DNA of 64,000 nucleotides, from positions 1 through 64,000 of IMG/VR virus record IMGVR_UViG_2974799246_000001; one strand, written 5' to 3'. This DNA is from a virus (Duplodnaviria > Caudoviricetes). The translations under genes were made by a program, and so were the position numbers. The notes beneath the pieces are model-generated. The model searched no databases and was not told the origin of the DNA. It saw only the letters and a list, made by a program, of their open reading frames with translations. This document shows, one piece after another, positions 10,510 to 31,799 of this stretch (position 1 is its first letter; every line of letters begins with the position of its first letter).

Positions 10510-11102
10510 TGGATTTATCTGCATTAGGTTACGCACCGAAGCAGTTCCGAGTAATCCCCGTTGAGAAGGGCAACCTCGTGACTGACTTCATTCAAGGTAA
10601 GTTCCGCGTTATCGGCGTTGAGTGCAACGCTCGTGGTGCTTACGGAAGCCCGATTCAAAAGAGTATTGCCCGTCGTTTCCCTGAAGTCGTGAACCGCGTC
10701 AACGCCGTTGATTACGAACACGAATTAACAATCGGTAAGACGCATTTGGTTCGCGTTCGCACTCAAGCCCGCCGTGATTTGTTTGTTGCTAACATGCACA
10801 TTGCGCGCGGCTTTGGTCTGGGTCTGAATGGTTCGTCTGAGGGGCATCATAAGCCCGTTAACCGTTTCAGTGAAAAGTTCCTGACGCGAGCGTTTGAACA
10901 TCTGCTGGAGCAGTGCGATAAAGAAAACATCGCACCAGACCGACAGATTGCTATTCAGCGTTTCTATGGCGGACTCGGCGGAGTTTCTTGGGAAGAGGTT
11001 TGTGTTGTGCTCGATGCTATCTGTGAGAAGCACCAGTTCAACATGTATGCCTACTTGCCAAAGAACTACAATACTAACTACGTGCGGGGTTCCGCGCAAT
11101 AA
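10509..11102 (+). CDS. Macrodomain protein (Poa1p/DarG-like ADP-ribose processing), divergent
   Basis: KGNLV, ECNARGAYGSPIQKSIARRFP, FVANM, GGLGGVSWEEV match the macro Poa1p-like pattern. Confidence 0.72.
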   Translation: MDLSALGYAPKQFRVIPVEKGNLVTDFIQGKFRVIGVECNARGAYGSPIQKSIARRFPEVVNRVNAVDYEHELTIGKTHLVRVRTQARRDLFVANMHIARGFGLGLNGSSEGHHKPVNRFSEKFLTRAFEHLLEQCDKENIAPDRQIAIQRFYGGLGGVSWEEVCVVLDAICEKHQFNMYAYLPKNYNTNYVRGSAQ

Positions 11103-11114
11103 CTCTGGGGTGTA

Positions 11115-11450
11115 TTGATGAACACAATACGCGGATTTGATTGGCTCTTTTACGGAGATGGAACCGATAGTGGCCAACACTCAATTGTAAGTCTTGTTGT
11201 CGATCAGACAGCAAAATCAATACAGGTAGAAGTAGAGCCAGGATGCGCCGTACCTGTAATTCAAGCGATTCAGGAAAATGATGTCCTGTACGCTCAGGCC
11301 GAAGCTGGCCTCTATCGTATTCGTTACAGTTGCTCGTTCCGAACGTTGGATGCTAACGTCTTCCCGCCCACCAAGACTAACTTCCAGTTGAAGTTGATCG
11401 CGTGTGACTTCCTTGCGGGTGTTACTACTCACGATAAACTTCTGGACTAA
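11115..11450 (+). CDS. Hypothetical protein
   Basis: ORF in operon context. Confidence 0.6.
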   Translation: MMNTIRGFDWLFYGDGTDSGQHSIVSLVVDQTAKSIQVEVEPGCAVPVIQAIQENDVLYAQAEAGLYRIRYSCSFRTLDANVFPPTKTNFQLKLIACDFLAGVTTHDKLLD

Positions 11451-11455
11451 GCACT

Positions 11456-12214
11456 ATGATTACAGTAAAGAATATTGAACTGCGTTTGAAAAGAATAGAC
11501 TATACTCGGCCTTCACCGACCCGTGAACGGCTTGAGGAACTTGTGGCTGATGGACGTTCACGTATCTTGAAGTCGGCGCAGATTGATGGACTGTGTCCTG
11601 AATCTGATCGTTACTTTGAGTTCTGCCTGTCGCAAGTTGGTTCATTCTGCACTGCATCATACAACGCTGTGGAGATCGCTCTCTGCATCGGCCTGCAACC
11701 TATCCACGTTGCTGCCGCTATCAGCGTTCACGGTTTCGAATGGTCGCATAGACTCTTGGGTCTCAAGCGTTTTGCCTCCCTCGATCGTGGTGGCTTTACC
11801 GTCTGGAAATCTGCTGACTCTTGGTTCTCGTTATGCGAAGCGCAACGTCGAGCTACTGCCGTACGTGGTGATCAGGTTATCTCTACTGGTCAGTCTAAGC
11901 TGCGTCAGGCTGTACGCAACGGCGACATGGCCAAGATACTTGAGATTGCTCAATCGCATCCCCACCGCATGATGAGCATTCTCGATGTACGCAAAGAGCT
12001 TTATAGTGACCCGCGTTTGGAGAAATCTAAGCGCGAACGCGAAGCCAAGAAAAAAGAACTGGCTGCCGAAGGTAAGAAGTTAGCTGAACGCGGTTCGTAC
12101 AACGATCTTGGTACTGTATTCAACGGGCCAATTACCAAACCAGATCGCACTCGTGGTATTGATGATTCTTCTCAAACACGAAGTACGGTTAGTGGTCGTC
12201 GTTTTCGTGTCTGA
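11456..12214 (+). CDS. Hypothetical protein
   Basis: 252-aa ORF, basic C-terminus. Confidence 0.7.
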   Translation: MITVKNIELRLKRIDYTRPSPTRERLEELVADGRSRILKSAQIDGLCPESDRYFEFCLSQVGSFCTASYNAVEIALCIGLQPIHVAAAISVHGFEWSHRLLGLKRFASLDRGGFTVWKSADSWFSLCEAQRRATAVRGDQVISTGQSKLRQAVRNGDMAKILEIAQSHPHRMMSILDVRKELYSDPRLEKSKREREAKKKELAAEGKKLAERGSYNDLGTVFNGPITKPDRTRGIDDSSQTRSTVSGRRFRV

Positions 12215-12228
12215 AAAACAGATAACGG

Positions 12229-12234
12229 TAATTT
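12229..12234 (+). promoter_or_regulatory. TAATTT putative promoter core upstream of the modification cluster
   Basis: Intergenic, 33 nt before ATG 12267. Confidence 0.45.
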
Positions 12235-12266
12235 CGACAGGTCAAAACAAATAACGGAACACTATC

Positions 12267-13037
12267 ATGAGCAACGTTGATAAAACAATGCCACAAGGTC
12301 GCTGGGAATTTAATGAGCCAGTTGCTGCTGTCTTCGATAACATGTTGCAAAACTCCATTCCTTCGTATGACCGTATGCGCGACCTGACCTATCGTCTTGG
12401 TCGCCAGTTCGTAACTCCAGGTACGGCCATCGTTGATTTGGGCGCATCGCTCGGTCGCGCTATCGAACCATTCTGTGCTGAGTTCGGCGAGTACCATTAT
12501 ATTCATGCTGCTGACCGTCCCGAGCCAGATCGTGAAATCGGCAATCATTACTGCTGTTATGAAGTCGCACCGGCAATGCTTGAGCGTCTTCGTCAAAACG
12601 AAGTGCTGGTCAAGGCCAAAGCGAAAATCAGTAGTGAGTCGCTGGTTGAAGTCGATACTTTCCGCTTCGACGAGCAGGTTGAGTGCTCCCTGATTCTGAG
12701 TGTGCTGACTCTCCAGTTCACTCCTATCGAACATCGCCAACACATTCTGGAGAAAGTGTACGACTCTCTGGAGAAAGGCGGTGCTTTCATTCTGGTTGAG
12801 AAAGTGTTGGGTGACGACAACTTCCTTGACCGTTTGCTGGTAGACACCTACTACGGCATGAAGGGCGACAACGGTTATTCGCAAGAATCTATTGCGACTA
12901 AGCGCAAAGCTCTCGAAGGCGTACTGGTGCCTGTGAAAGCTGCATGGAACGAAGAACTGCTGCGTAAAGCAGGCTTCAACCGTGTGGAGTGTTTCTACCG
13001 CGACCTGAACTTTGCTGGATGGATCGCAGTCAAATAA
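12267..13037 (+). CDS. cmoA: CmoA-like carboxy-S-adenosylmethionine synthase
   Basis: WEFNEPVAAVFDNMLQNSIPSY, DLGASLG, LTLQF, GGAFILVEK, NGYSQESIATKRKALEGVL (cf. E. coli CmoA GYSELEISQKRSMLENVM, with the carboxylate-binding Arg kept), LNFAGWIAVK. Confidence 0.85.
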   Translation: MSNVDKTMPQGRWEFNEPVAAVFDNMLQNSIPSYDRMRDLTYRLGRQFVTPGTAIVDLGASLGRAIEPFCAEFGEYHYIHAADRPEPDREIGNHYCCYEVAPAMLERLRQNEVLVKAKAKISSESLVEVDTFRFDEQVECSLILSVLTLQFTPIEHRQHILEKVYDSLEKGGAFILVEKVLGDDNFLDRLLVDTYYGMKGDNGYSQESIATKRKALEGVLVPVKAAWNEELLRKAGFNRVECFYRDLNFAGWIAVK

Positions 13038-13048
13038 GGTAAAACGAA

Positions 13049-14104
13049 ATGAGCGTAAGTGGTGATATTTATAACATCCCTCAACCGTTCGCCATGTATT
13101 GTGGCAACTGTGAAACTCGTGCTCAGGCAAAAGTTGCCTCAGGCACAATTGAATGGGCGTCAGAGAAAGTCTGCTGCGTTGTCGCCGACGATAACGGCCT
13201 GTTCCCTGATGTGCCTCACATCAACATTGCAAGCGTCCATGCTACAGATGCGCGTACTCTGGTAATCGGCTGTGCACCGTTCGGCGGTAAGATTGACGAG
13301 CACATGGACCGCACTATTCGCAGTGCTATCTATCGTGGTCTGAACGTTGCTGCTGCAATGCACAATCGTCTGGCAGACAATCCTGAATACGTTGCGCTGG
13401 CTGAACAGTACAATGTCAAGCTGTACGACTTCCGTCACCGTCCTGACGCGTACCCACTCGGTACTGGTGAGAAGCGCAAAGGCATTCGTCTGCTGACTGT
13501 CGGCACAGATAGTTCCTGCGGTAAAAAGTTCACGACGCTGACGCTACACCGTGTTCTGAAAAAGATTCACGACGACACGGTGTTCTGCTCAACTGGCCAG
13601 ACTGGTTTCCTGATCAGCAATTGCGGCATCAACAACGATACGCTGGTAGCTGACTTCCTTGCTGGTGCCGCTGAGTCCTTATCGCCTGACGGCCCTGCTG
13701 ATCGTATCTATCTGATCGAAGGCCAGGGCGCAATCACTCACCCAGCGTACACTGGCGGCAGCATGAGTCTGATTGCTGGCTCGCAGCCTGACTACTTCAT
13801 CATGTGTCATGCGTGGGGACGTAAGAATCAGCTCGGTGTTAAACGCGCACCTGACCTTGCTTTCGAACTGAAGGCTAATCTGGATGCAGCAGCCATTCAC
13901 GGTCTTACTCCTAAGTATCTGGGCATCAGTATCAACTTCTCCGAGAGCGGCCTGACCATCGAAGAACAAGACGCTGAGATGTGCGCTCTGGAAGACCTGT
14001 ACGACATTCCAGTGTTCGACCCGTCGCGTGATAGTATCGTCATCAAAGAGATGGCCCATCATCTCAAGACGACTGTAATATTCAGGAGCGAGTCGAATGG
14101 CTAA
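13049..14104 (+). CDS. DUF1611-family protein (Rossmann-like + P-loop; DgcN-like)
   Basis: LLTVGTDSSCGKKFTT, STGQTG, DFLAGAAE, IEGQGAITHPAY, GSQPD..IMCH. Confidence 0.85.
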   Translation: MSVSGDIYNIPQPFAMYCGNCETRAQAKVASGTIEWASEKVCCVVADDNGLFPDVPHINIASVHATDARTLVIGCAPFGGKIDEHMDRTIRSAIYRGLNVAAAMHNRLADNPEYVALAEQYNVKLYDFRHRPDAYPLGTGEKRKGIRLLTVGTDSSCGKKFTTLTLHRVLKKIHDDTVFCSTGQTGFLISNCGINNDTLVADFLAGAAESLSPDGPADRIYLIEGQGAITHPAYTGGSMSLIAGSQPDYFIMCHAWGRKNQLGVKRAPDLAFELKANLDAAAIHGLTPKYLGISINFSESGLTIEEQDAEMCALEDLYDIPVFDPSRDSIVIKEMAHHLKTTVIFRSESNG

Positions 14105-14966
14105 ACATCCTCTTCGCAAGCTGTTTGAACAGCACGTAAAGAAAGAGGTCAAAGCCAAAGAAGTGGCCGTTCTGCTTTCGAGTGGCCTCGACGGTTTGGT
14201 TAGCGCACTCGCGGCGCATGATCTCGGCATCAAAGTTCACGCGTTCACGTTCCAGATGGGTGATGAACAGAGCTTCGATAGCAAACACGCTCGCATCGTC
14301 GCAGAGAAGATGGGATGGGAGTTCACTCTGGTTAAAGTGCCGACGTCTGACACTGCAATCGCTAAAGGGTGGAAACAACTCCATGCAAACTTCCGCTGCA
14401 TCAAAAAGCGTGATTATGAGTGTGCGTACCCTATGGTGTACTGCTACAAAGCGATCAAAGATGCTGGCCTGAAATACGTGCTTAGTGGTCTGGTGGCTGA
14501 CGGTTACTTCCTGTATAACCGTAACACGCACATCCAGAAAGTAAGCGGCCCTCACTCTATCGCTGAAAAGTATCACGCGTACCGCACCGAATACTTCCGA
14601 CCGTGGATCAAAAGCGGTAAGAAGTCGCTCGGCGTTGACGGCTATAACCCGAGCGGTATGCTGCAACACGAATTGCTGTGTGACCACTTCGGCCTTGTTC
14701 ACGTTAACCCGTGGATGCAGCCGAAAGTATTTGATTACTTCATCAAGTACACATGGCAAGAGCTAAACATGCCCAAGCAGAAAATGCCAATAACAACGGC
14801 TTGGGCAGATCACATCGCAGTTGTTGGGCATCGTCCACATCGCGGCTATCAAACAGAAGCTGGAGTGCCTGCGCACTTCGAACGCTTACTGGATAATCCT
14901 GAGATCAACTTCAACGGCCGCAAGCGCATCATGGACGTGGCCCGCGATTGGTCAACGAGGACTTAA
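14097..14966 (+). CDS. Asparagine-synthetase-like ATP-dependent amide ligase (synthetase domain only)
   Basis: PP-loop VAVLLSSGLDG, VLSGLVADGYF (cf. SGEGADELF), VNPWMQ and RPHRGYQ; no N-terminal Ntn glutaminase domain. Confidence 0.8.
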   Translation: MAKHPLRKLFEQHVKKEVKAKEVAVLLSSGLDGLVSALAAHDLGIKVHAFTFQMGDEQSFDSKHARIVAEKMGWEFTLVKVPTSDTAIAKGWKQLHANFRCIKKRDYECAYPMVYCYKAIKDAGLKYVLSGLVADGYFLYNRNTHIQKVSGPHSIAEKYHAYRTEYFRPWIKSGKKSLGVDGYNPSGMLQHELLCDHFGLVHVNPWMQPKVFDYFIKYTWQELNMPKQKMPITTAWADHIAVVGHRPHRGYQTEAGVPAHFERLLDNPEINFNGRKRIMDVARDWSTRT

Positions 14967-14967
14967 T

Positions 14968-15582
14968 ATGTTTGTACACATCATTGACGGTGGTATTGGT
15001 GGGTCTTATGTTGCTCACCAGTTAATGGAGGCTGGGTTTAAATGTCGCGTTCACTCTCCAAACAACAATCGTGTTCGGGCAGTACATGCGCCGTACCCTT
15101 CGCTTTCTATGGGTCACACTGAACAGGAAATTGAAAAGCATATCGGTAACGTGCTCGGTACGTTTCGCGGTATCTTCCTGATCAGTAGCTACGTGGGTTC
15201 GTTGATTGCAAATCAGATGATTGACCAGTGCGGCCAAAGCGGCAACATCATCACCTGTGACGATCTCAAATGTGGTTCAATACCTGTTGTTGCTTCATCC
15301 ATTTCTGTAAACGTCTATAAGAAGCAAAGACAACTGGCACGTATCTCGCATCGCCTGAAACACTTCGACATTGACCACGAGTTCATTGTCGCGGATAAGG
15401 CTGTGCGTTTTGCTGCTGGTTCGGAGTACGATGAGCACGATGCTCGAAAGGAGTTTAACAACAACGCCAAATTCCTTTCGAGTCCGTCAATGATTGTTGC
15501 TGCACACAAACTCGGTGTGAAGAACAGTATGTACCATAACTATGCGGGACTGGTGCGCGAGTTCCTTGAGAGGCGCCAGTAG
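14968..15582 (+). CDS. Hypothetical enzyme; N-terminus resembles glutamate racemase or a Rossmann dinucleotide-binding motif
   Basis: ATG 14968 with GAGGA RBS; IIDGGIGGSYVA...APY..HTEQEIEK; translationally coupled to the amide ligase. Confidence 0.5.
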   Translation: MFVHIIDGGIGGSYVAHQLMEAGFKCRVHSPNNNRVRAVHAPYPSLSMGHTEQEIEKHIGNVLGTFRGIFLISSYVGSLIANQMIDQCGQSGNIITCDDLKCGSIPVVASSISVNVYKKQRQLARISHRLKHFDIDHEFIVADKAVRFAAGSEYDEHDARKEFNNNAKFLSSPSMIVAAHKLGVKNSMYHNYAGLVREFLERRQ

Positions 15583-15600
15583 CAGTAACGCGAGGGCACG

Positions 15601-15864
15601 ATGATTAATCGCTTTCAATTGAAGAAAGTTCCGACGCTCGAAGCGTGTCAATGGAACGGGGAGAACGTTGAGGAGATGGAGAAGTTCCTCAACGGTCATG
15701 GTCATGTTGTTGGGCGTTATGTCCAGATTGGTGTGCTCGATGAATATCGCAAGCCGTCTATTGCTAACGTGTCTGTAGGCAACTACGCAGTTAAGCATGA
15801 AGACGGTCGGTTCGATGCGATGACAGCAAGCGAACTGATGGACAAATACGTTCTGGCGGATTGA
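15601..15864 (+). CDS. Conserved small phage protein (KKP..EA.QW.G.N / GDY..K..G family)
   Basis: LKKVPTLEACQWNGEN...VGNYAVKHEDGRF. Confidence 0.65.
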   Translation: MINRFQLKKVPTLEACQWNGENVEEMEKFLNGHGHVVGRYVQIGVLDEYRKPSIANVSVGNYAVKHEDGRFDAMTASELMDKYVLAD

Positions 15865-15871
15865 GGGCATA

Positions 15872-16327
15872 ATGAATCTGTTTTCTATTTTAAAGCAACA
15901 GGTAAAGAAAGCGCTGTCCACCGAAGCGAATCACGAACCAGAGATTCGTGCGTTGTTCGACTGGCGCTACTCTGTTGAGATCAAAGGCCAGATGTACATT
16001 GTTGGTAAGACTGGAGCAAACACTTGCTTCTATGTCGAGCCTGGTACTGACGAGCCGATTGCGTGTTACCCTGATGCGCTGCTGGAGAAGATTGATCAGT
16101 GGGGCGGAAGCAAGTACGTGACGTATGCCATTTACTTCAAGCGTTTCGAAAGCCCTGTCGCTGAGAATATCAAAGACCTGGAGAAAGCGCTGAAAGGCAA
16201 ACCGAAGTCGTACAAGAAAGGCTACTTCATCTGTGGCGTGACGCCGAAAGGTAAGCGTGTGAAACTCTATCGCTTGCAGCAAGGTCTGTCTGGTATGCAG
16301 TGGGTAGCTGTCGAACCTAAATCGTAA
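15872..16327 (+). CDS. Hypothetical protein
   Basis: ORF with GAGG RBS. Confidence 0.7.
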   Translation: MNLFSILKQQVKKALSTEANHEPEIRALFDWRYSVEIKGQMYIVGKTGANTCFYVEPGTDEPIACYPDALLEKIDQWGGSKYVTYAIYFKRFESPVAENIKDLEKALKGKPKSYKKGYFICGVTPKGKRVKLYRLQQGLSGMQWVAVEPKS

Positions 16328-16357
16328 CAGCACGGCCTGTCCGTGTGAGGAGCAAAT

Positions 16358-16645
16358 ATGATTGACGACATTATTATTGGTCACATCTATCAGTCATCGA
16401 ATGGTCATCCATATAAAGTGGAAGGCCGCGCCGAACACGGGCAAAACCCAGAAGACAAGTGGGTACAACTCCATAACCTGACTCAAACTCCTTTGTATGC
16501 CAAAGGCCATAAGTTCAGTATGCGAGAGTCCGTGTTCAAGGAAGTTTTCTCTGTGTATACAGAAGGAGAGTACCATGAACACAACGTTAAGGCATCATCT
16601 GAAATGCCGCCACTTCGATCCTTCATTCTACCATTGTTGGCTTAG
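16358..16645 (+). CDS. DUF1653-like small beta-barrel protein
   Basis: GHIYQSSNGHPYKV..RAEH...MRESVFKEVF. Confidence 0.5.
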   Translation: MIDDIIIGHIYQSSNGHPYKVEGRAEHGQNPEDKWVQLHNLTQTPLYAKGHKFSMRESVFKEVFSVYTEGEYHEHNVKASSEMPPLRSFILPLLA

Positions 16646-17088
16646 CGATACGCAAATGACCGTGCCGCTGTTTGGCTTTGATCGAGCAATGCGTGGTCTA
16701 CAGGTCTACACACCAGATGCACCAAAGCACGATAAGAATCCGAAAGCGTGTCGCTACTTCACGCGAGCGTTCGGTGGCAAGCAGTTGGTGTGGGGATCGG
16801 AAATTAAACCTGAACGGGTCGACCGTCTTCTTAACTGAGTCTGTCTTCAAGGCATGTGCGCTACATCGTCTTGGACTCAATGCTTGGTCCGTTCTCGGGT
16901 CTAATGTGAGTGAGCATCTGTATCACCAGCTTCGACTTCTTGGTCTACGTTTCGTCTGTCTTGGTGATAACGATAAAGCAGGACTGGAGTTTAGTCAGAC
17001 GTTCGGACTAGGCGCTGTCAGTGCGGACCTCGATGAGATGACCGATGAGCAGTTGCTTGATTTAACTTTACCCTTCGTAAGGAAATAG
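16575..17088 (+). pseudogene. Toprim/primase-like protein interrupted by a +1 frameshift near 16803
   Basis: Frame A (ATG 16575, AAGGAG RBS) MNTTLRHHL..VPLFGFD..GLQVY..RYFT..VWGSEI; frame B continues NLNGSTVFLTESVFKA..SVLG..GDNDKAG (Toprim E and DxD). Confidence 0.72.
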
Positions 17089-18020: not shown

Positions 18021-18863
18021 ATGACAGTAATCAGCCCAATCCGATATCAGGGCAATAAGCGAAGCCTTATCCCGATTATTCTTGAGCACACGCCTTCTGT
18101 GCAGGACTGCCCTCGCATGGTGGACGTGTTTGGTGGTAGCGCTACTGTTTGTGCGAACATGCCGCAGAAGTTTCGCGTTTATAACGAACTGAGTCCTCAG
18201 GTGTACGATATCGTTAAGATGTTAGTCGAACAGGACCCGAAGAAAACTCTTGGTCAGGTCAAGCGACTGGTCAAACATTGGTGCCTGACTAACAGCAACG
18301 AAGCGAACTACGATGCGTTTCGTACCGTCGTCCAGAAGAAGCGCACTGCTATCTTGCATTATGTTGCACATCGCCACGCTCATTCGAACATGCTGCGATT
18401 CAACCAGCAAGGTGTGTACAATGTAGGCTTTGGTGATCGTGGTCTGATTGGTAAGTTCGATGAACTGGAACACGAACTCACTACATTCCACAAACATATG
18501 CAGGGCGTTCACCTGACGAACATGAAGTACGGCAAGCTGCTTGGTCGCTTAGGCCACCAGCTAGACTGCAACACGTTCTGCTACTTCGACCCTCCGTACC
18601 TGGCGAGTGGTGCGATGCAGTACGGTAAGTGGACAGAGCAGAATGAACGCAACCTGCTTACGACTCTGGAGCAGTTGAATCGTCGCGGTGTTCCCTGGAT
18701 GTTGAGCAACGTTATCGAGCACAGAGAGTTCTCAAACGATCTGCTAAAGCGTTGGTTAAAGAAACATGCGACAACCGTGCTCTATCCAAACAAAAGCTAT
18801 GCGATGAACAATGGCCAGAGCGGCTCGCATAGCACGATTGAAATTCTGGCAATGAACTATTGA
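18021..18863 (+). CDS. dam: DNA adenine methyltransferase (Dam/D12 class)
   Basis: SPIRYQGNK, DVFGGSA, RFNQQGVYNVGFG, YFDPPY, WMLSN. Confidence 0.9.
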   Translation: MTVISPIRYQGNKRSLIPIILEHTPSVQDCPRMVDVFGGSATVCANMPQKFRVYNELSPQVYDIVKMLVEQDPKKTLGQVKRLVKHWCLTNSNEANYDAFRTVVQKKRTAILHYVAHRHAHSNMLRFNQQGVYNVGFGDRGLIGKFDELEHELTTFHKHMQGVHLTNMKYGKLLGRLGHQLDCNTFCYFDPPYLASGAMQYGKWTEQNERNLLTTLEQLNRRGVPWMLSNVIEHREFSNDLLKRWLKKHATTVLYPNKSYAMNNGQSGSHSTIEILAMNY

Positions 18864-25600: not shown

Positions 25601-25904
25601 CCTGCTGGTAAAGATGTTCGGCCAGAACAAGCCATTCATCGTCGTGCGCCGTGACGCTATCGTGGAGAACGAAAAGCGTTTCGGTGATCGCGTTTACTTC
25701 TCTAATGGCGTTAACACCGTCACTGTGCCAAACATTCAAGGGCTTGACCTGGGTGATAAGCTCTACATTGCAGAAGACGGCGATGTGTATGAGTGGCATC
25801 CTCACTTCGAGCGTCCTTACGAAGCAGTATCGAACAACCAGACAGAAGCTCTGGCGTTTGGTCTGCATCCCATTGTCTTCCACACCGACACACGGAACAG
25901 CTAA
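25560..25904 (+). CDS. Hypothetical protein
   Basis: Stop coupled to the thyA start. Confidence 0.6.
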   Translation: MPTPVILLKQQTRDLLVKMFGQNKPFIVVRRDAIVENEKRFGDRVYFSNGVNTVTVPNIQGLDLGDKLYIAEDGDVYEWHPHFERPYEAVSNNQTEALAFGLHPIVFHTDTRNS

Positions 25905-27001
25905 TGTCACAACCACTTGATTTACGAAACCCGAACCACTACGAACTGTACTCTCTCCATAGCGTGGACGAGCAGTATATCAACCTGTGCGATGCAATCA
26001 TTGCTACTGGTACGCAAGAGTCCGATGCTGGTCGCACCGACGATACGTGGACGACTCTGATTGGCGTTGGTTTCCAGTTGCAGAACACGCACATTGCTTT
26101 CCCTGCACTGCTGTCCGCACGTAAGAACTGGAGCGCAGCCGTCGATGAGATGTGCTGGATGGCTCGCGGTGAAACGAACATCAACACTCTCGGCTCTAAG
26201 ATCTGGGACGAGTGGGCAGATGAAAGCGGTGAGTGCGGTCCAATCTACGGCGAGATGTGGCGTCGTTGGCCTGACATTAAAGCGTTCTTCGACTACACGC
26301 AGCCTATGGCGTCTTGCCCTACTGCCGATGTTATTCGTGTGCGTGACGAAATTCTGCGTATGCGTCAGGACGGCTACATCGAAACGCAACTGACTGACGG
26401 TCGCATCCTGTTTGAAGGTGAGATTGACCAGTTCGCTAACGCTCTGTATCACATCGAAAACCGTTCGCGTTCTCGCCGCATTCGTGTGCAGGGTTTCAAC
26501 CCAAGCTATGTGAACATGCAGGGTCTTCCTCCGTGTCACACTGAGTTTGAGTTCAACGTAACGAAGTCCACCAAGTACGAACAGGCGCAGGCCGATGCTC
26601 GCGGTCAGACGGTAGCGCAGGACAGTCTGCATATCACTGTCACCATGCGCAGCAACGACTGCCTGCTGGGGCGTCCTTTCAACATCATCGGCTACAGTGC
26701 AATGCACCAACTGATTGCGAAGTGGGCTGGCTTGAACGTTGGTGGCTTTACGCTGAATACGACGAACACCCACCTGTACGATCATCACCGTGAAGCATAC
26801 GCTAAACAGCGTGAGCAATGGATGACGTTGCGTGAACGTATGCAAACAACTGGCGAGCCTGTGAAATATCCTGTGCTCGAAATCTCCGATGATGTTATCG
26901 GTCTGACAGCTAAAGAACTGCTGGACAACGTTAACATCGACTGGTTCGAGCTGGTGGACTACAGCCCGATGCCAGCAGTAAAAGGACGTGTGACCAAATG
27001 A
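25904..27001 (+). CDS. thyA: Thymidylate synthase (ThyA type, with insertions)
   Basis: GRTDD, IWDEWA, GPIYGEMWR, SRRI, LPPCH, MRSND.LLG.PFNI (Asn = dUMP specificity), HLY. Confidence 0.92.
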   Translation: MSQPLDLRNPNHYELYSLHSVDEQYINLCDAIIATGTQESDAGRTDDTWTTLIGVGFQLQNTHIAFPALLSARKNWSAAVDEMCWMARGETNINTLGSKIWDEWADESGECGPIYGEMWRRWPDIKAFFDYTQPMASCPTADVIRVRDEILRMRQDGYIETQLTDGRILFEGEIDQFANALYHIENRSRSRRIRVQGFNPSYVNMQGLPPCHTEFEFNVTKSTKYEQAQADARGQTVAQDSLHITVTMRSNDCLLGRPFNIIGYSAMHQLIAKWAGLNVGGFTLNTTNTHLYDHHREAYAKQREQWMTLRERMQTTGEPVKYPVLEISDDVIGLTAKELLDNVNIDWFELVDYSPMPAVKGRVTK

Positions 27002-28969: not shown

Positions 28970-29668
28970 ATGGCAAAAATTGCTAAAACAAAGGAAGGGA
29001 AAAAGAAAAGCGCGATGAAGTTTGACTTGAAAACGCTCAAGACTTCACAACTGAAAGGCGCTGATTACAACCCTCGTTTCATTACAGACAGCCGCCTGAA
29101 AGCACTCGAAAGTTCTTTGGGTAGCTTTGGCGATCTGTCTGGCATCGTCTTCAACAACAGTGTCAAAAGCGGCGTATTGATCTCTGGCCACCAGCGTCTG
29201 AAATCCATCGACGGCTGGAAGACTCGCATTGAGATTCAGAAAGCCTCCGACCAACACGGTACCGTAGCTCTGGGTTACATCCACGCTACGCACCCGAAGA
29301 AAGCCGAGAAGGTTATCAGTATCCCGTTGCGTATCGTTAACTGGACTGATAAGAAAGCCGAGTACGCTGCGAACATCGCGGCGAACGCGCACGGCGGTGA
29401 GTTCGATAACAAGAAACTCGCCAAGCTGGTGGAGAAGCTGGACTTGACCACCATCAAGCCTCAGTTGCTGGGTCTTGACCCACTTGAGATTCGCGGCCTT
29501 CAACAAAAGCTGAAAGGCCAGGCTGCGGTTGTAGCTCAAGAGCGTGTCGGTAAAACTACAGGCCAGATGAACGGCAGTAGCGGTGCGTTCAAAGAGTATG
29601 GTACGGACGAAGTAGGTGAGAGTCTGAACTGCACCTGCCCGCGCTGTGGATTTAAGTTCGAGGGATAA
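28970..29668 (+). CDS. ParB/Srx-like N-terminal domain protein with C-terminal Zn ribbon
   Basis: LKGADYNPR, LISGHQRL, NIAANAHGGEFD, CPRCG; directly upstream of the C5-MTase. Confidence 0.8.
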   Translation: MAKIAKTKEGKKKSAMKFDLKTLKTSQLKGADYNPRFITDSRLKALESSLGSFGDLSGIVFNNSVKSGVLISGHQRLKSIDGWKTRIEIQKASDQHGTVALGYIHATHPKKAEKVISIPLRIVNWTDKKAEYAANIAANAHGGEFDNKKLAKLVEKLDLTTIKPQLLGLDPLEIRGLQQKLKGQAAVVAQERVGKTTGQMNGSSGAFKEYGTDEVGESLNCTCPRCGFKFEG

Positions 29669-29669
29669 T

Positions 29670-31799
29670 ATGATCATCAAGCCGCCTACTATGAAGGAAA
29701 TCAACAAGCTGGATAAACCCTGGCGTGGTATGAGTTTCTTCGCAGGTTGCGGTGGATCTTCTACCGGTCACAAGATGGCCGGTATCAACATCCTGTTGAG
29801 TAACGAGTTCGTGGATAGTGCCCGCGAGTCTTACGAAGCAAACCATCCGACTACTAAAGTGCTGCCGCATGATATTCGTCGTCTGGACCCGAGCAAGCTC
29901 ATGCGTTATTGTGGCTTGGCGAAAGGCGAACTGGATTTACTTGACGGCAGTCCTCCGTGCTTTACCGAAGACACCATCATTCATACAGCAGACGGCATGA
30001 AGTTCATCTCGGACATGAATGTCGGCGATCAAGCAATGACCTCTGTTGGTCGTTACTTCCCTGTGTACGATACTATGGTTCGTCCGTATGTCGGCACGAT
30101 GCACAAAATCGAAACTCTGCTGGGCGCAAACAACGCTACACCAGAGCATCCGTTCTTTGTCAGACGCAGCATTCCTACTGGCGGCTACACTGACCCGTTC
30201 TGGTGTGATGCGAAAGACGTTCAGGAAGGTGACCTGTTAGGTAGCCCGCGCACTACGCCTGACATGGGACTCGACGTGTATCAGTCTCAACTCGATCAGC
30301 TGCCGAAGCAGATTGCAGAGTGGAGCACATTCCCTGAGTTCTGGTGGATGGTTGGACACTGGTGTGATCGCGGTTCGATTGAAACAGTGAGCGGTGTTGA
30401 AGTCGTTAGCTTTGAGTCGCACTCAAGCCTCGAAAACGCAATGATTGAGCAGGCGTTTGACGCGCTGAAAATCAGCAGCCTGAACCGTATCGACACGATG
30501 ACAGCACAACGCAAAACGTTCCGTATCGTTATGGACGCAGAGCTGGTGCAGTTCTTACGCCGATTCGTCAGTCAGGGCAACAACAAGTTCTCTCGTCGTC
30601 TGCCTGCGATTGTCTTCCACCTGACAGTCGAATTGAAGCAACAGTTCATTCTCGGTTGTGCCGGTCATGACTATGTGACTGGTATGGGAACAGGCTTGGC
30701 GATCACCTCAGATAGCCGTCGCTTCCTGATTGAGCTGAACTACCTGTGCTGTTCTGCATTCAACCGACCGCTGTTCGATGGTCTGACTTGGGGCGACGTT
30801 TACTTCGGCAGCCCGATGACTCCGCGTGATCGTAACAGTGTTAAGCCTCTCATTGGCTTCCTGTTCCTGCAGGACGAACACAACTTCTTCCACGAGTTCG
30901 ATGACGCTGACCCGCATTTGTGGGTAGAAGTGATTGAGAACCTCGCGTATCAGGCGACATGTGACGTGTACAACTTCTCCGTTGAGACGGATGAAACATA
31001 CGTTGCAAACAGCATGGTCGTTCACAACTGCAAGGGCTTCTCTACTGCAGGTGTGAAAGAAGAAGGCTGGGGCAAGGAAGTTAAATACAGCGATAACAAG
31101 TATCAGCAGGTTGATGACCTGTTCGATCAGTATTGTCGTATGCTGGAAGGCATGAAGCCGAAGGTGTTCACTGCGGAAAACGTGAGTGGCCTTGTGAAGG
31201 GCGCATCGAAAGGTTACTTCCTTGAAATCATGAAGGAGTTCGACCGAATAGGTTATTACGTTCGAGCACCTATGCTTAATGCTGCGTGGCTTGGTGTGCC
31301 TCAATCGCGTGAGCGTATCATCTTTATGGGTGTACGCAAAGACGTTGCACACGCACTGGGTCACAAGACGGCTGCGGCCGCTGTGCCGAATGTTGTTCCG
31401 TGTGACAGTATGGCATTCCTTGCCGATGCTCTGCCGCATATTCTGCGATACAAGTCCACGAAGAAAGATATCATCACCTATCTTCCTGCGATGAACGGAC
31501 CTATGCCAACGATCACTGCTGCCGACGCCATTGCGTATGAGACCGCGCGATTCTCATCGGCTGGCTTCGTCGAGGACAACAAAGGTCATCGCCGTAAACT
31601 GACCATTGACGAACTCAAAGTGATATCGGGTTTGCCCTCAGACTACAAACTGAAAGGCAAATTCGAAGAACAGTGGGAACGTCTTGGTCGTATCTGTGTG
31701 CCTGCAATGACACACGCAGCGGCTAAAGCGCTCATCGAACACGTCCTGATTCCTTACGCGAAGAAACGTAAGAAGAAGCCAGGCGATATCTTTAAGTAA
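29670..31799 (+). CDS. C5 DNA cytosine methyltransferase-family enzyme, predicted carboxymethyltransferase; intein-containing
   Basis: FAGCGG (motif I), GSPP|CKGFS (IV), ENVSGL (VI), PQSRERI (VIII), RKLTIDE..ISGLP (IX); motif X reads QWERLGRICVP instead of Q..Q.GN.V.P. Confidence 0.88.
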   Translation: MIIKPPTMKEINKLDKPWRGMSFFAGCGGSSTGHKMAGINILLSNEFVDSARESYEANHPTTKVLPHDIRRLDPSKLMRYCGLAKGELDLLDGSPPCFTEDTIIHTADGMKFISDMNVGDQAMTSVGRYFPVYDTMVRPYVGTMHKIETLLGANNATPEHPFFVRRSIPTGGYTDPFWCDAKDVQEGDLLGSPRTTPDMGLDVYQSQLDQLPKQIAEWSTFPEFWWMVGHWCDRGSIETVSGVEVVSFESHSSLENAMIEQAFDALKISSLNRIDTMTAQRKTFRIVMDAELVQFLRRFVSQGNNKFSRRLPAIVFHLTVELKQQFILGCAGHDYVTGMGTGLAITSDSRRFLIELNYLCCSAFNRPLFDGLTWGDVYFGSPMTPRDRNSVKPLIGFLFLQDEHNFFHEFDDADPHLWVEVIENLAYQATCDVYNFSVETDETYVANSMVVHNCKGFSTAGVKEEGWGKEVKYSDNKYQQVDDLFDQYCRMLEGMKPKVFTAENVSGLVKGASKGYFLEIMKEFDRIGYYVRAPMLNAAWLGVPQSRERIIFMGVRKDVAHALGHKTAAAAVPNVVPCDSMAFLADALPHILRYKSTKKDIITYLPAMNGPMPTITAADAIAYETARFSSAGFVEDNKGHRRKLTIDELKVISGLPSDYKLKGKFEEQWERLGRICVPAMTHAAAKALIEHVLIPYAKKRKKKPGDIFK
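29958..31028 (+). mobile_element. Intein (357 aa) with decayed LAGLIDADG domain, inserted just before the catalytic Cys
   Basis: C-FTEDTII, ATPEHPF, VYNFSVETDETYVANSMVVHN|C; degenerate blocks MVGHWCDRGS and FILGCAGHD. Confidence 0.9.

Follow-up and report, generated by a model that had tools for sequence, protein, structure and literature searches.

Synechococcus phage S-B43 has a CmoA-CmoX-CmoY system, which makes 5-carboxymethylcytosine (5cxmC) and 5-glycylcarboxymethylcytosine (Yang et al., Nat Commun 2025, PMC12783734). 5cxmC was reported as a natural hypermodification handle in December 2025, and glycine is the sole appended group identified so far (PMC12783734). The published nucleoside ions are at m/z 286.1 for 5cxmdC and at m/z 343.1 for its glycine amide. 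We analyzed a related locus in a stretch of 64,000 nucleotides (nt) of viral DNA, positions 1 to 64,000 of the IMG/VR record IMGVR_UViG_2974799246_000001 (this whole stretch is called the window below). Four closely packed genes on the + strand of the window, at 12267-15582, encode a CmoA-like protein, a DUF1611 protein, an amide ligase and a fourth protein, which we designated ORF4. Homologues of all three S-B43 proteins are present here, including a CmoX with the SPPC motif and an equivalent of R350, a PP-loop ligase without a glutaminase domain, and a ParB-like gene as the neighbour of CmoX, and the two systems would follow a common logic, i.e., a carboxyl handle and then an amide. Unlike S-B43, however, this locus has an extra DgcN-like DUF1611 gene translationally coupled to the ligase gene and then a protein of predicted MurI fold; CmoX contains an intein and is located 14 kb away; the ligase clade is only 33% identical to the CmoY of S-B43 (SpCmoY); and the relatives of this phage add a putative pyridoxal phosphate (PLP) racemase, a GT4-like transferase, a DAHP synthase and a chorismate mutase. 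On sequence comparison, it seems rather likely that the cluster is the cofactor-and-tailoring arm of a CmoA/CmoX/CmoY-type cytosine hypermodification, with a DgcN-like step on a D-amino-acid unit, and the phage DNA probably carries an undescribed base.

The window covers the left end of the 265-kb genome of an Alexandravirus-like jumbo phage of the Erwinia type. The genome shows 95% identity with those of Erwinia phages pEa_SNUABM_16, 18 and 28, and about 86% with those of vB_EamM_Alexandra and Dickeya phage AD1 (genus Alexandravirus). The genes concerned are as follows, with the basis of each assignment.

12267..13037, + strand: CmoA-like carboxy-S-adenosylmethionine (Cx-SAM) synthase, 256 amino acids (aa); TIGR00740, PDB 4gek and homology to the CmoA of S-B43 (SpCmoA)
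13049..14104, + strand: DUF1611/DgcN-like two-domain protein, 351 aa; PF17396, PF07755 and PDB 7xrj
14097..14966, + strand: CmoY-type PP-loop, adenosine monophosphate (AMP)-forming amide ligase, 289 aa; PF00733 and homology to SpCmoY
14968..15582, + strand: ORF4, protein of predicted Asp/Glu-racemase fold, 204 aa; AlphaFold2 (AF2) model, Foldseek and VIA-align
28970..29668, + strand: ParB-like protein, 232 aa; homology to genes preceding CmoX elsewhere
29670..31799, + strand: precursor of a CmoX-like, putative cytosine-C5 carboxymethyltransferase; PF00145 and homology to the CmoX of S-B43 (SpCmoX)
29958..31028, + strand: intein in the CmoX gene, 357 aa; Intein_splicing, Hint_2 and TIGR01443

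The spacer between the CmoA-like and DUF1611 genes is 11 nt, and the reading frames of DUF1611 and the ligase share 8 nt (ATGGCTAA), with the ligase start codon overlapping the DUF1611 stop. ORF4 most likely starts from the ATG at 14968, 1 nt past the ligase stop; an alternative, longer ORF4 initiated by TTG at 14821 would overlap the ligase. The coordinates and the 8-nt overlap bear out the preliminary description of this DNA, which had pointed to four tightly coupled open reading frames. The four-gene arrangement is kept in 11 phage-database records of type A (defined below; RefSeq duplicates included), and it is more than chance. The promoter and terminator scan of positions 11000-17000 gave counts at chance level, and therefore, we infer the operon structure from the gene packing alone.

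The DUF1611 protein has the two domains of its family, DUF1611_N (PF17396, E value 4.3e-18) and DUF1611_C (PF07755, E value 4.1e-45), i.e., a Rossmann-like N domain and a P-loop C domain with the motif GTDxxxGKKxT. It also matched PDB 7xrj, which we take to be the structure of DgcN, with an E value of 5.4e-51 over residues 10-328, and the earlier assignment to DUF1611 was thus confirmed by both the domains and this match. DgcN, the only characterised DUF1611 relative, N-acetylates D-glutamate, as its NCBIfam name indicates; the DgcN-DgcA pathway is a D-glutamate catabolic pathway of marine bacteria, reportedly described by Yu et al. in the ISME J in 2023 (see also PMC12363236). The phage protein shares with DgcN the two-domain architecture. 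In our own reading of the alignment against the list of invariant residues, most of the residues invariant in the phage DUF1611 clade are also found in 7xrj, which argues for conserved chemistry, and the GTDxxxGKKxT P-loop is invariant in the clade. Unlike DgcN, the phage protein scores below the equivalog cut-off, and its partner is not DgcA but an AMP-forming ligase, in some cases together with a PLP racemase; its context is DNA modification, and its role would be biosynthetic, not catabolic.

All of the DUF1611 matches found among 50,697 phage records (32/32) came from Erwinia/Dickeya jumbo phages, and all were in this type of locus. AD1_017 has been listed as a DUF1611 protein that is absent from phage Y3 (Day et al. 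2018). For metagenomic contexts, we located the contigs of DUF1611 homologues with identities as low as 42%. In all, DUF1611 adjoins a ligase of the CmoY type in 13 distinct contexts in phages (42-98% identity), namely types A, B and C, L011, L014, L015, L019, L021/L023, L022, L024, L025, L027 and L039. The gene orders, together with those of type D and of one further contig, are given below.

Type A (this phage; also e.g. Alexandra and AD1): CmoA, DUF1611, ligase, ORF4
Type B (e.g. pEa_SNUABM_1, 17 and 23): CmoA, GT4-like (420 aa), DUF1611, PLP racemase-like, ligase, ORF4
Type C (e.g. pEa_SNUABM_7 and 21): CmoA, GT4-like, DUF1611, ligase, 84-aa gene
Type D (e.g. pEa_SNUABM_39, pEa_SNUABM_2 and Y3): CmoA, type-2 ligase, ORF4-like
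L011-13: DUF1611, Ala-racemase-like, ligase
L014: DUF1611, ligase
L015-17: CmoA, GT4-like, DUF1611, racemase-like, ligase, DAHP synthase
L021/L023 and L022: DUF1611 beside a CmoY-type ligase, followed in L022 by GNAT
L024: ParB-like, CmoX, CmoA, GT4-like, DUF1611, racemase-like, ligase
L019/20, L027 and L039: ParB-like, CmoX, DUF1611, ligase, CmoA
Contig of P0053: C5-methyltransferase, chorismate mutase, CmoA-like, DUF1611, 271-aa gene of no known family

In L019, L027 and L039, DUF1611 sits directly between CmoX and the ligase, and CmoX, DUF1611, the ligase and CmoA form one contiguous block in these three and in L024. ORF4 is missing from type C and from all metagenomic DUF1611 systems. A swap of the cassette was also observed among close relatives. 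The DNA similarity to pEa_SNUABM_39 stops at 13037, the stop codon of CmoA, and resumes at 14977, at the ORF4 start; the CmoA proteins are 97.7% identical, and one ligase of another clade (24% identical) is found in pEa_SNUABM_39 in the place of DUF1611 and the ligase. Since DUF1611 and the ligase were replaced together, they move as one unit. In the bacterial relative P0073 (35% identity; the one clearly bacterial case examined), DUF1611 is followed by a racemase of the enolase superfamily (MR_MLE), which is the canonical DgcN-DgcA order. That DUF1611 is a genuine recurrent partner of the ligase, and not a chance neighbour, is well supported by gene order; its inclusion in a pathway extension by the preliminary description was upheld by the 13 contexts and the cassette swap.

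Dependence of DUF1611 on one ligase clade was considered and rejected, as the ligases of L019, L027 and L039 are nearer to the type-2 ligases (36-38% versus 26-29% identity). Two of the metagenomic contexts showed further features. The 224-kb metagenomic phage of L022, which has a GT4-like gene and DUF1611, encodes a 302-aa GNAT acetyltransferase two genes past the ligase (L022:8192-9100). In L025, a 192-aa protein with only the C-terminal P-loop domain of DUF1611 (L025:6193-6771) is encoded upstream of a ligase gene (38% identity of the product), a ThiF-like gene is close by, and this protein may be a split or reduced form of the DUF1611-ligase module.

Optional genes are inserted around this pair. 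GT4-like genes precede DUF1611 at L001:2282-3544 and L024:3802-5019. Glycos_transf_1 was matched by 4/6 of these 400-420-aa proteins, with a best E value of 1.8e-5 and all below the Pfam cut-off, and the spacing of the invariant E248/E256 fits the EX7E motif; they are candidate glycosyltransferases of the GT-B/GT4 type. PLP alanine-racemase-like genes are located between DUF1611 and the ligase at L001:4572-5507 and L024:6055-7032. Their products keep the PLP-lysine motif PVVK..YG.G, and the N-terminal part matches alanine or serine racemase models. The two kinds of insertion suggest variants in which the adduct is glycosylated and/or contains a D-amino acid. A search for an alanine racemase and a GT4-like protein elsewhere in the genome of this phage found neither. 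The DAHP synthase at L015:9943-10806 passes the NCBIfam AroFGH cut-off, and a chorismate mutase (CM_2) is found beside the CmoA-like gene on the P0053 contig; these phage shikimate-pathway genes beside CmoA probably boost prephenate for carboxy-SAM synthesis.

In the pathway that we propose, the CmoA-like protein would convert S-adenosylmethionine (SAM) and prephenate into carboxy-SAM, as judged from homology. It matched TIGR00740 with an E value of 9.6e-43 and 146.6 bits, below the equivalog cut-off of 193.3, and NF011995 with 112.5 bits, below the cut-off of 285; the match to phrog_4752 had an E value of 3.5e-82, and by these comparisons the protein belongs to a diverged phage CmoA lineage. 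The E value against PDB 4gek (E. coli CmoA) was 5.5e-31, and in this alignment KRKALE of the phage protein is paired with KRSMLE, with the Arg aligned. According to Kim et al. in 2013, R199 of E. coli CmoA, in the KR..LE segment, reportedly binds the carboxylate of Cx-SAM. The identity with the experimentally validated SpCmoA is 30% over 238 aa (E value 7e-29). The TIGR00740, 4gek and SpCmoA alignments all agree with the previous claim of a CmoA-like enzyme retaining KR..LE.

The carboxymethyl group would then be transferred to C5 of DNA cytosine by the spliced CmoX with its ParB-like partner, yielding 5cxmC, by analogy with the S-B43 proteins. The CmoX-like gene is the single PF00145 locus in the 265-kb genome (E value 1.8e-38), and its N- and C-exteins are 53% and 31% identical to SpCmoX, respectively. 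It has the SPPC catalytic motif, as GSPP|C split by the intein, and in motif X (LGRICVP) the Arg aligns with R350 of SpCmoX (ERLGRICVP versus ERVGRMVPP), so that a CmoX-type Arg replaces the motif-X Asn. R350 of SpCmoX is a carboxylate-binding residue (PMC12783734). The homology backs the proposal that the enzyme encoded at 29670 is the 5cxmC-forming transferase. The 357-aa intein is inserted exactly at SPP|C, directly before the catalytic Cys, which doubles as the +1 residue of the C-extein. Its splicing motifs are Cys1, TxxH (TPEH) and a terminal HN followed by Cys, and no endonuclease domain was detected in it by Pfam. An intein also interrupts the metagenomic CmoX of L019 (L019:2688-4988) at this position, and the intein-less CmoX of L024 (L024:1860-3044) reads GSPPCKGFSTAG, which is the predicted spliced product of the CmoX of this phage.

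The ParB-like gene (28970-29668) ends 1 nt before the ATG of CmoX. Its product has 44-47% identity (E values 1e-52 to 1e-58) with the proteins encoded immediately before CmoX in L019, L024, L027 and Pseudomonas phage PaBG, and therefore, the ParB-like/CmoX pair is conserved across genera. Two of these homologues gave weak ParB_N matches below the Pfam cut-off, and PaBG_176 is annotated as a ParB-like domain nuclease. An association of ParBc with CmoX was reported by Yang et al. (PMC12783734), in agreement with the ParB-like gene found here.

The PP-loop ligase would adenylate the carboxylate of 5cxmC and form an amide with an amine, again as expected from homology. It matched PF00733 (E value 5.5e-14) at residues 6-138, in the synthetase part only, and its similarity to AsnB is confined to the C-terminal synthetase portion (profile positions 235-388 of 517, with the TIGR01536 match beginning at 235). 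The PP-loop has the sequence SSGLDG and the glutaminase domain is absent, as had been stated for an asparagine-synthetase-like ligase without that domain. The identity with the characterised SpCmoY is 33% over 276 aa, i.e., the full length (E value 3e-49).

The comparative genomics suggests that DUF1611 is an obligate partner that would act at or just after this ligation and alter the product, so that the final base would differ from the published glycine amide. It would perform N-acyl chemistry of the DgcN type, and the target would be the alpha-amino group of an amino-acid unit in the side chain that has the D configuration. When 5cxmC is joined to an amino acid by an amide bond, the result is an N-(substituted acetyl) amino acid, which is the chemotype of N-acetyl-D-glutamate, the DgcN product. 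The D configuration is proposed because of the DgcN relationship, the PLP racemases located between DUF1611 and the ligase in relatives, and the predicted MurI fold of ORF4. Since none of the genes of this phage is a racemase gene of proven type, host pools would have to supply the D-amino acid, and the relatives would add their own PLP racemase and glycosyltransferase. The preliminary description had suggested a D-amino acid or an acetylated amine as the substituent; the racemase-like genes in relatives and the ORF4 fold speak for this, while the chemistry is one that we infer. Two versions can be drawn. In version (a), which is slightly favoured, DUF1611 would N-acetylate the remaining free amine of the ligated amino acid, e.g. 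of a diamino acid, and we hold such acetyl capping on the tethered amino acid to be a tentative possibility. In version (b), DUF1611 would move the activated cytosin-5-yl-acetyl group to a free D-amino acid, and the product would be an N-(substituted acetyl)-D-amino acid; this transfer seems rather doubtful. It is to a similar degree doubtful that the virion DNA has cytosine amide-linked through the 5-carboxymethyl group to a D-amino acid, with DUF1611 acting on DNA as the acyl-transfer step in strict analogy to the acetyl transfer by DgcN. The tailoring of a phage DNA base by N-acetylation has a precedent, as Lee et al. reportedly described 5-acetylaminomethyl-dU in Pseudomonas phage PaMx11, a thymidine hypermodification with an N-acetylated amine; that pathway, in contrast, works on another base, from a 5hmU pyrophosphate handle and not a carboxyl, with an acetyltransferase of an unrelated family.

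Several points weigh against a DgcN-like step on the DNA. The DgcN model NF041892 gives 279.9 bits with the phage protein, and the equivalog cut-off is 480. The canonical partner DgcA, an enolase-type racemase, is absent beside the phage DUF1611, whose neighbour is a ligase. If a simple amino acid is ligated through its alpha-amine, no amine remains for acetylation, and therefore, version (a) needs a second amine and version (b) needs the handover of an activated intermediate; we know of no precedent for either. The BioD-like P-loop motif of DUF1611 would also fit an enzyme dependent on adenosine triphosphate (ATP), and CmoX is encoded 14 kb from the cluster and depends on splicing for its activity. 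In addition, SpCmoY performs both adenylation and amide formation alone (PMC12783734).

An alternative order of events, which we regard as unlikely, is that DUF1611 acts before the ligase on a small molecule and readies the amine, for example by acetylating the D-centre of meso-diaminopimelate, D-ornithine or D-lysine and thereby leaving just the other amine for ligation. Enzymes of the DgcN family act on free D-amino acids (NCBIfam name; PMC12363236), and the racemase-like genes adjoining DUF1611 in relatives, as well as the joint swapping with the ligase, would agree with this order. However, the type-A cassette is without an enzyme that makes a special amine, and the adduct could equal that of version (a), in which case the step order alone differs. 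Improbable, too, is that DUF1611 is a second ATP-dependent amide-forming enzyme, with a BioD/CobQ-like P-loop and an acyl-phosphate, which extends the chain by one residue and leaves a dipeptide-like side chain on 5cxmC. The invariant GTDxxxGKKxT P-loop resembles the motif of dethiobiotin synthetase, the amino acid ligated by a CmoY-type enzyme leaves a new free carboxylate, and the optional racemase could supply D-Ala; but the sole characterised DUF1611 relative is named an acetyltransferase, not a ligase, and there is no evidence of ATP use in the DUF1611 family.

We consider it very improbable that the cluster is not directed to DNA at all, with CmoA, the ligase and DUF1611 modifying a tRNA or a small molecule, or DUF1611 draining host D-glutamate in a host takeover, and the C5-methyltransferase being an ordinary methylase. 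The classical role of CmoA is in tRNA cmo5U, CmoX is 14 kb from the cluster in the window, and the CmoA-like protein is below the equivalog cut-off. Nevertheless, a search of the genome found no CmoB, in motif X of the methyltransferase the Asn is replaced by the CmoX-type Arg, and the four genes from CmoX to CmoA are contiguous in L019, L024, L027 and L039; furthermore, SpCmoY acts on DNA (PMC12783734).

ORF4 was described previously as a racemase- or Rossmann-like protein that would supply or tailor the substituent. The profile search of 1.84 billion representatives gave 5 clusters of its family, all from Erwinia/Dickeya-type jumbo phages. An AF2 model from 11 close homologues had a pLDDT of 49, and the addition of four distant members from the profile search (15 sequences) gave a usable model with a pLDDT of 89 and a pTM of 0.86. 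The top Foldseek matches of this model were all glutamate (MurI) or aspartate racemases (E value 1.6e-6, TM 0.63-0.66). In VIA-align, MurI gave a Z of 14.4 with a root-mean-square deviation of 3.1 over 176 aa, further matches had Z of 13.8 and 13.1, and the 10/10 best matches were in the Asp/Glu/hydantoin racemase superfamily, against a background Z of 7-8. The model thus predicts the two-domain Asp/Glu-racemase (MurI) fold for ORF4; it superposes on MurI along the whole length (Z 13.8-14.4), with the Asp after strand 1 conserved. By contrast, ORF4 is about 60 residues shorter than MurI and has no sequence-level match: none was found in the profile search of PDB sequences or in the Pfam scan of all members, and hhalign against E. 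coli MurI aligned the first 18 residues only, with a probability of 3%. The invariant Ser74 (LISSYVGS) and Ser172 (FLSSPS) are at strand-to-helix turns, and in the model they appear to stand where E. coli MurI has its catalytic Cys92 (ACNTAS) and Cys204 (GCTH), which would give ORF4 Ser for both Cys. The Rossmann reading was rejected, because the DGGIGG segment is present but its glycines are replaced in distant members (DFQGTAEA, DLGAVAEH), and the predicted fold is that of a racemase. ESM Atlas had pointed to alpha/beta hydrolases (scores of 0.88-0.91), a lead that was dropped once Foldseek and VIA-align had both retrieved racemases.

The ligase is followed by ORF4 in types A, B and D, regardless of which ligase type is present. 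ORF4 is absent from type C and all other DUF1611 systems, lies outside the swapped cassette, and co-varies neither with DUF1611 nor with the ligase type. The 203-aa gene after the ligase in PaBG has no detectable homology to ORF4. ORF4 is not needed for the DUF1611 function, and may be a lineage-specific accessory at most (e.g. an amino-acid-binding factor) or merely syntenic. The racemase half of the earlier reading is supported by the fold, but a role in tailoring is doubtful because of the Ser at both Cys positions, the absence of co-variation and the patchy distribution.

In the main text of Yang et al. (PMC12783734), whose data set has 5,615 CmoX contigs, DUF1611, Erwinia and inteins are not mentioned, and none of the words for the accessory features occurs; our searches found no other literature on CmoX systems or phage DUF1611, which agrees with the earlier statement that no pathway with this extension has been described. 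As far as gene comparisons go, the DUF1611-ligase adjacency, the joint swapping, the order CmoX-DUF1611-ligase and the optional racemase, GT4-like, DAHP synthase and chorismate mutase genes go beyond Yang et al. 2025. The presence of a conserved fourth enzyme, a member of a D-amino-acid acyltransferase family, predicts a new DNA base that is probably chiral or N-acylated, and so do the optional partners, i.e., the racemase and the glycosyltransferase. The tie to the ligase would give the phage DUF1611 proteins a first function. If the proposal is true, a D-amino-acid amide would be the first nucleobase bearing a D-amino acid, and the swapping of cassettes with a racemase or glycosyltransferase would give a natural combinatorial series of DNA bases. 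The cultured Erwinia/Dickeya phages of types A-D, with nearly identical flanks, are a natural allelic series. Hypermodified bases are important in the evasion of restriction and of further defences that target DNA, and they also matter as enzymatic tools in the site-directed functionalisation of DNA.

Some other genes of the window were also noted. For the 151-aa gene at 15872-16327, which lies past the cluster, a homologue with 46% identity occupies the corresponding position in the distant phage contig L015 (L015:10772-11215), with a very weak radical-SAM match (E value 0.009). A thymidylate-synthase homologue of 402 aa at 25793-27001 is about 140 aa longer than ThyA, with an N-terminal extension and an insertion between profile positions about 103 and 107. 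Finally, a D12-class N6-adenine DNA methyltransferase (Dam-like) is encoded at 18021-18863 (E value 5e-25), and the phage DNA is probably adenine-methylated as well.

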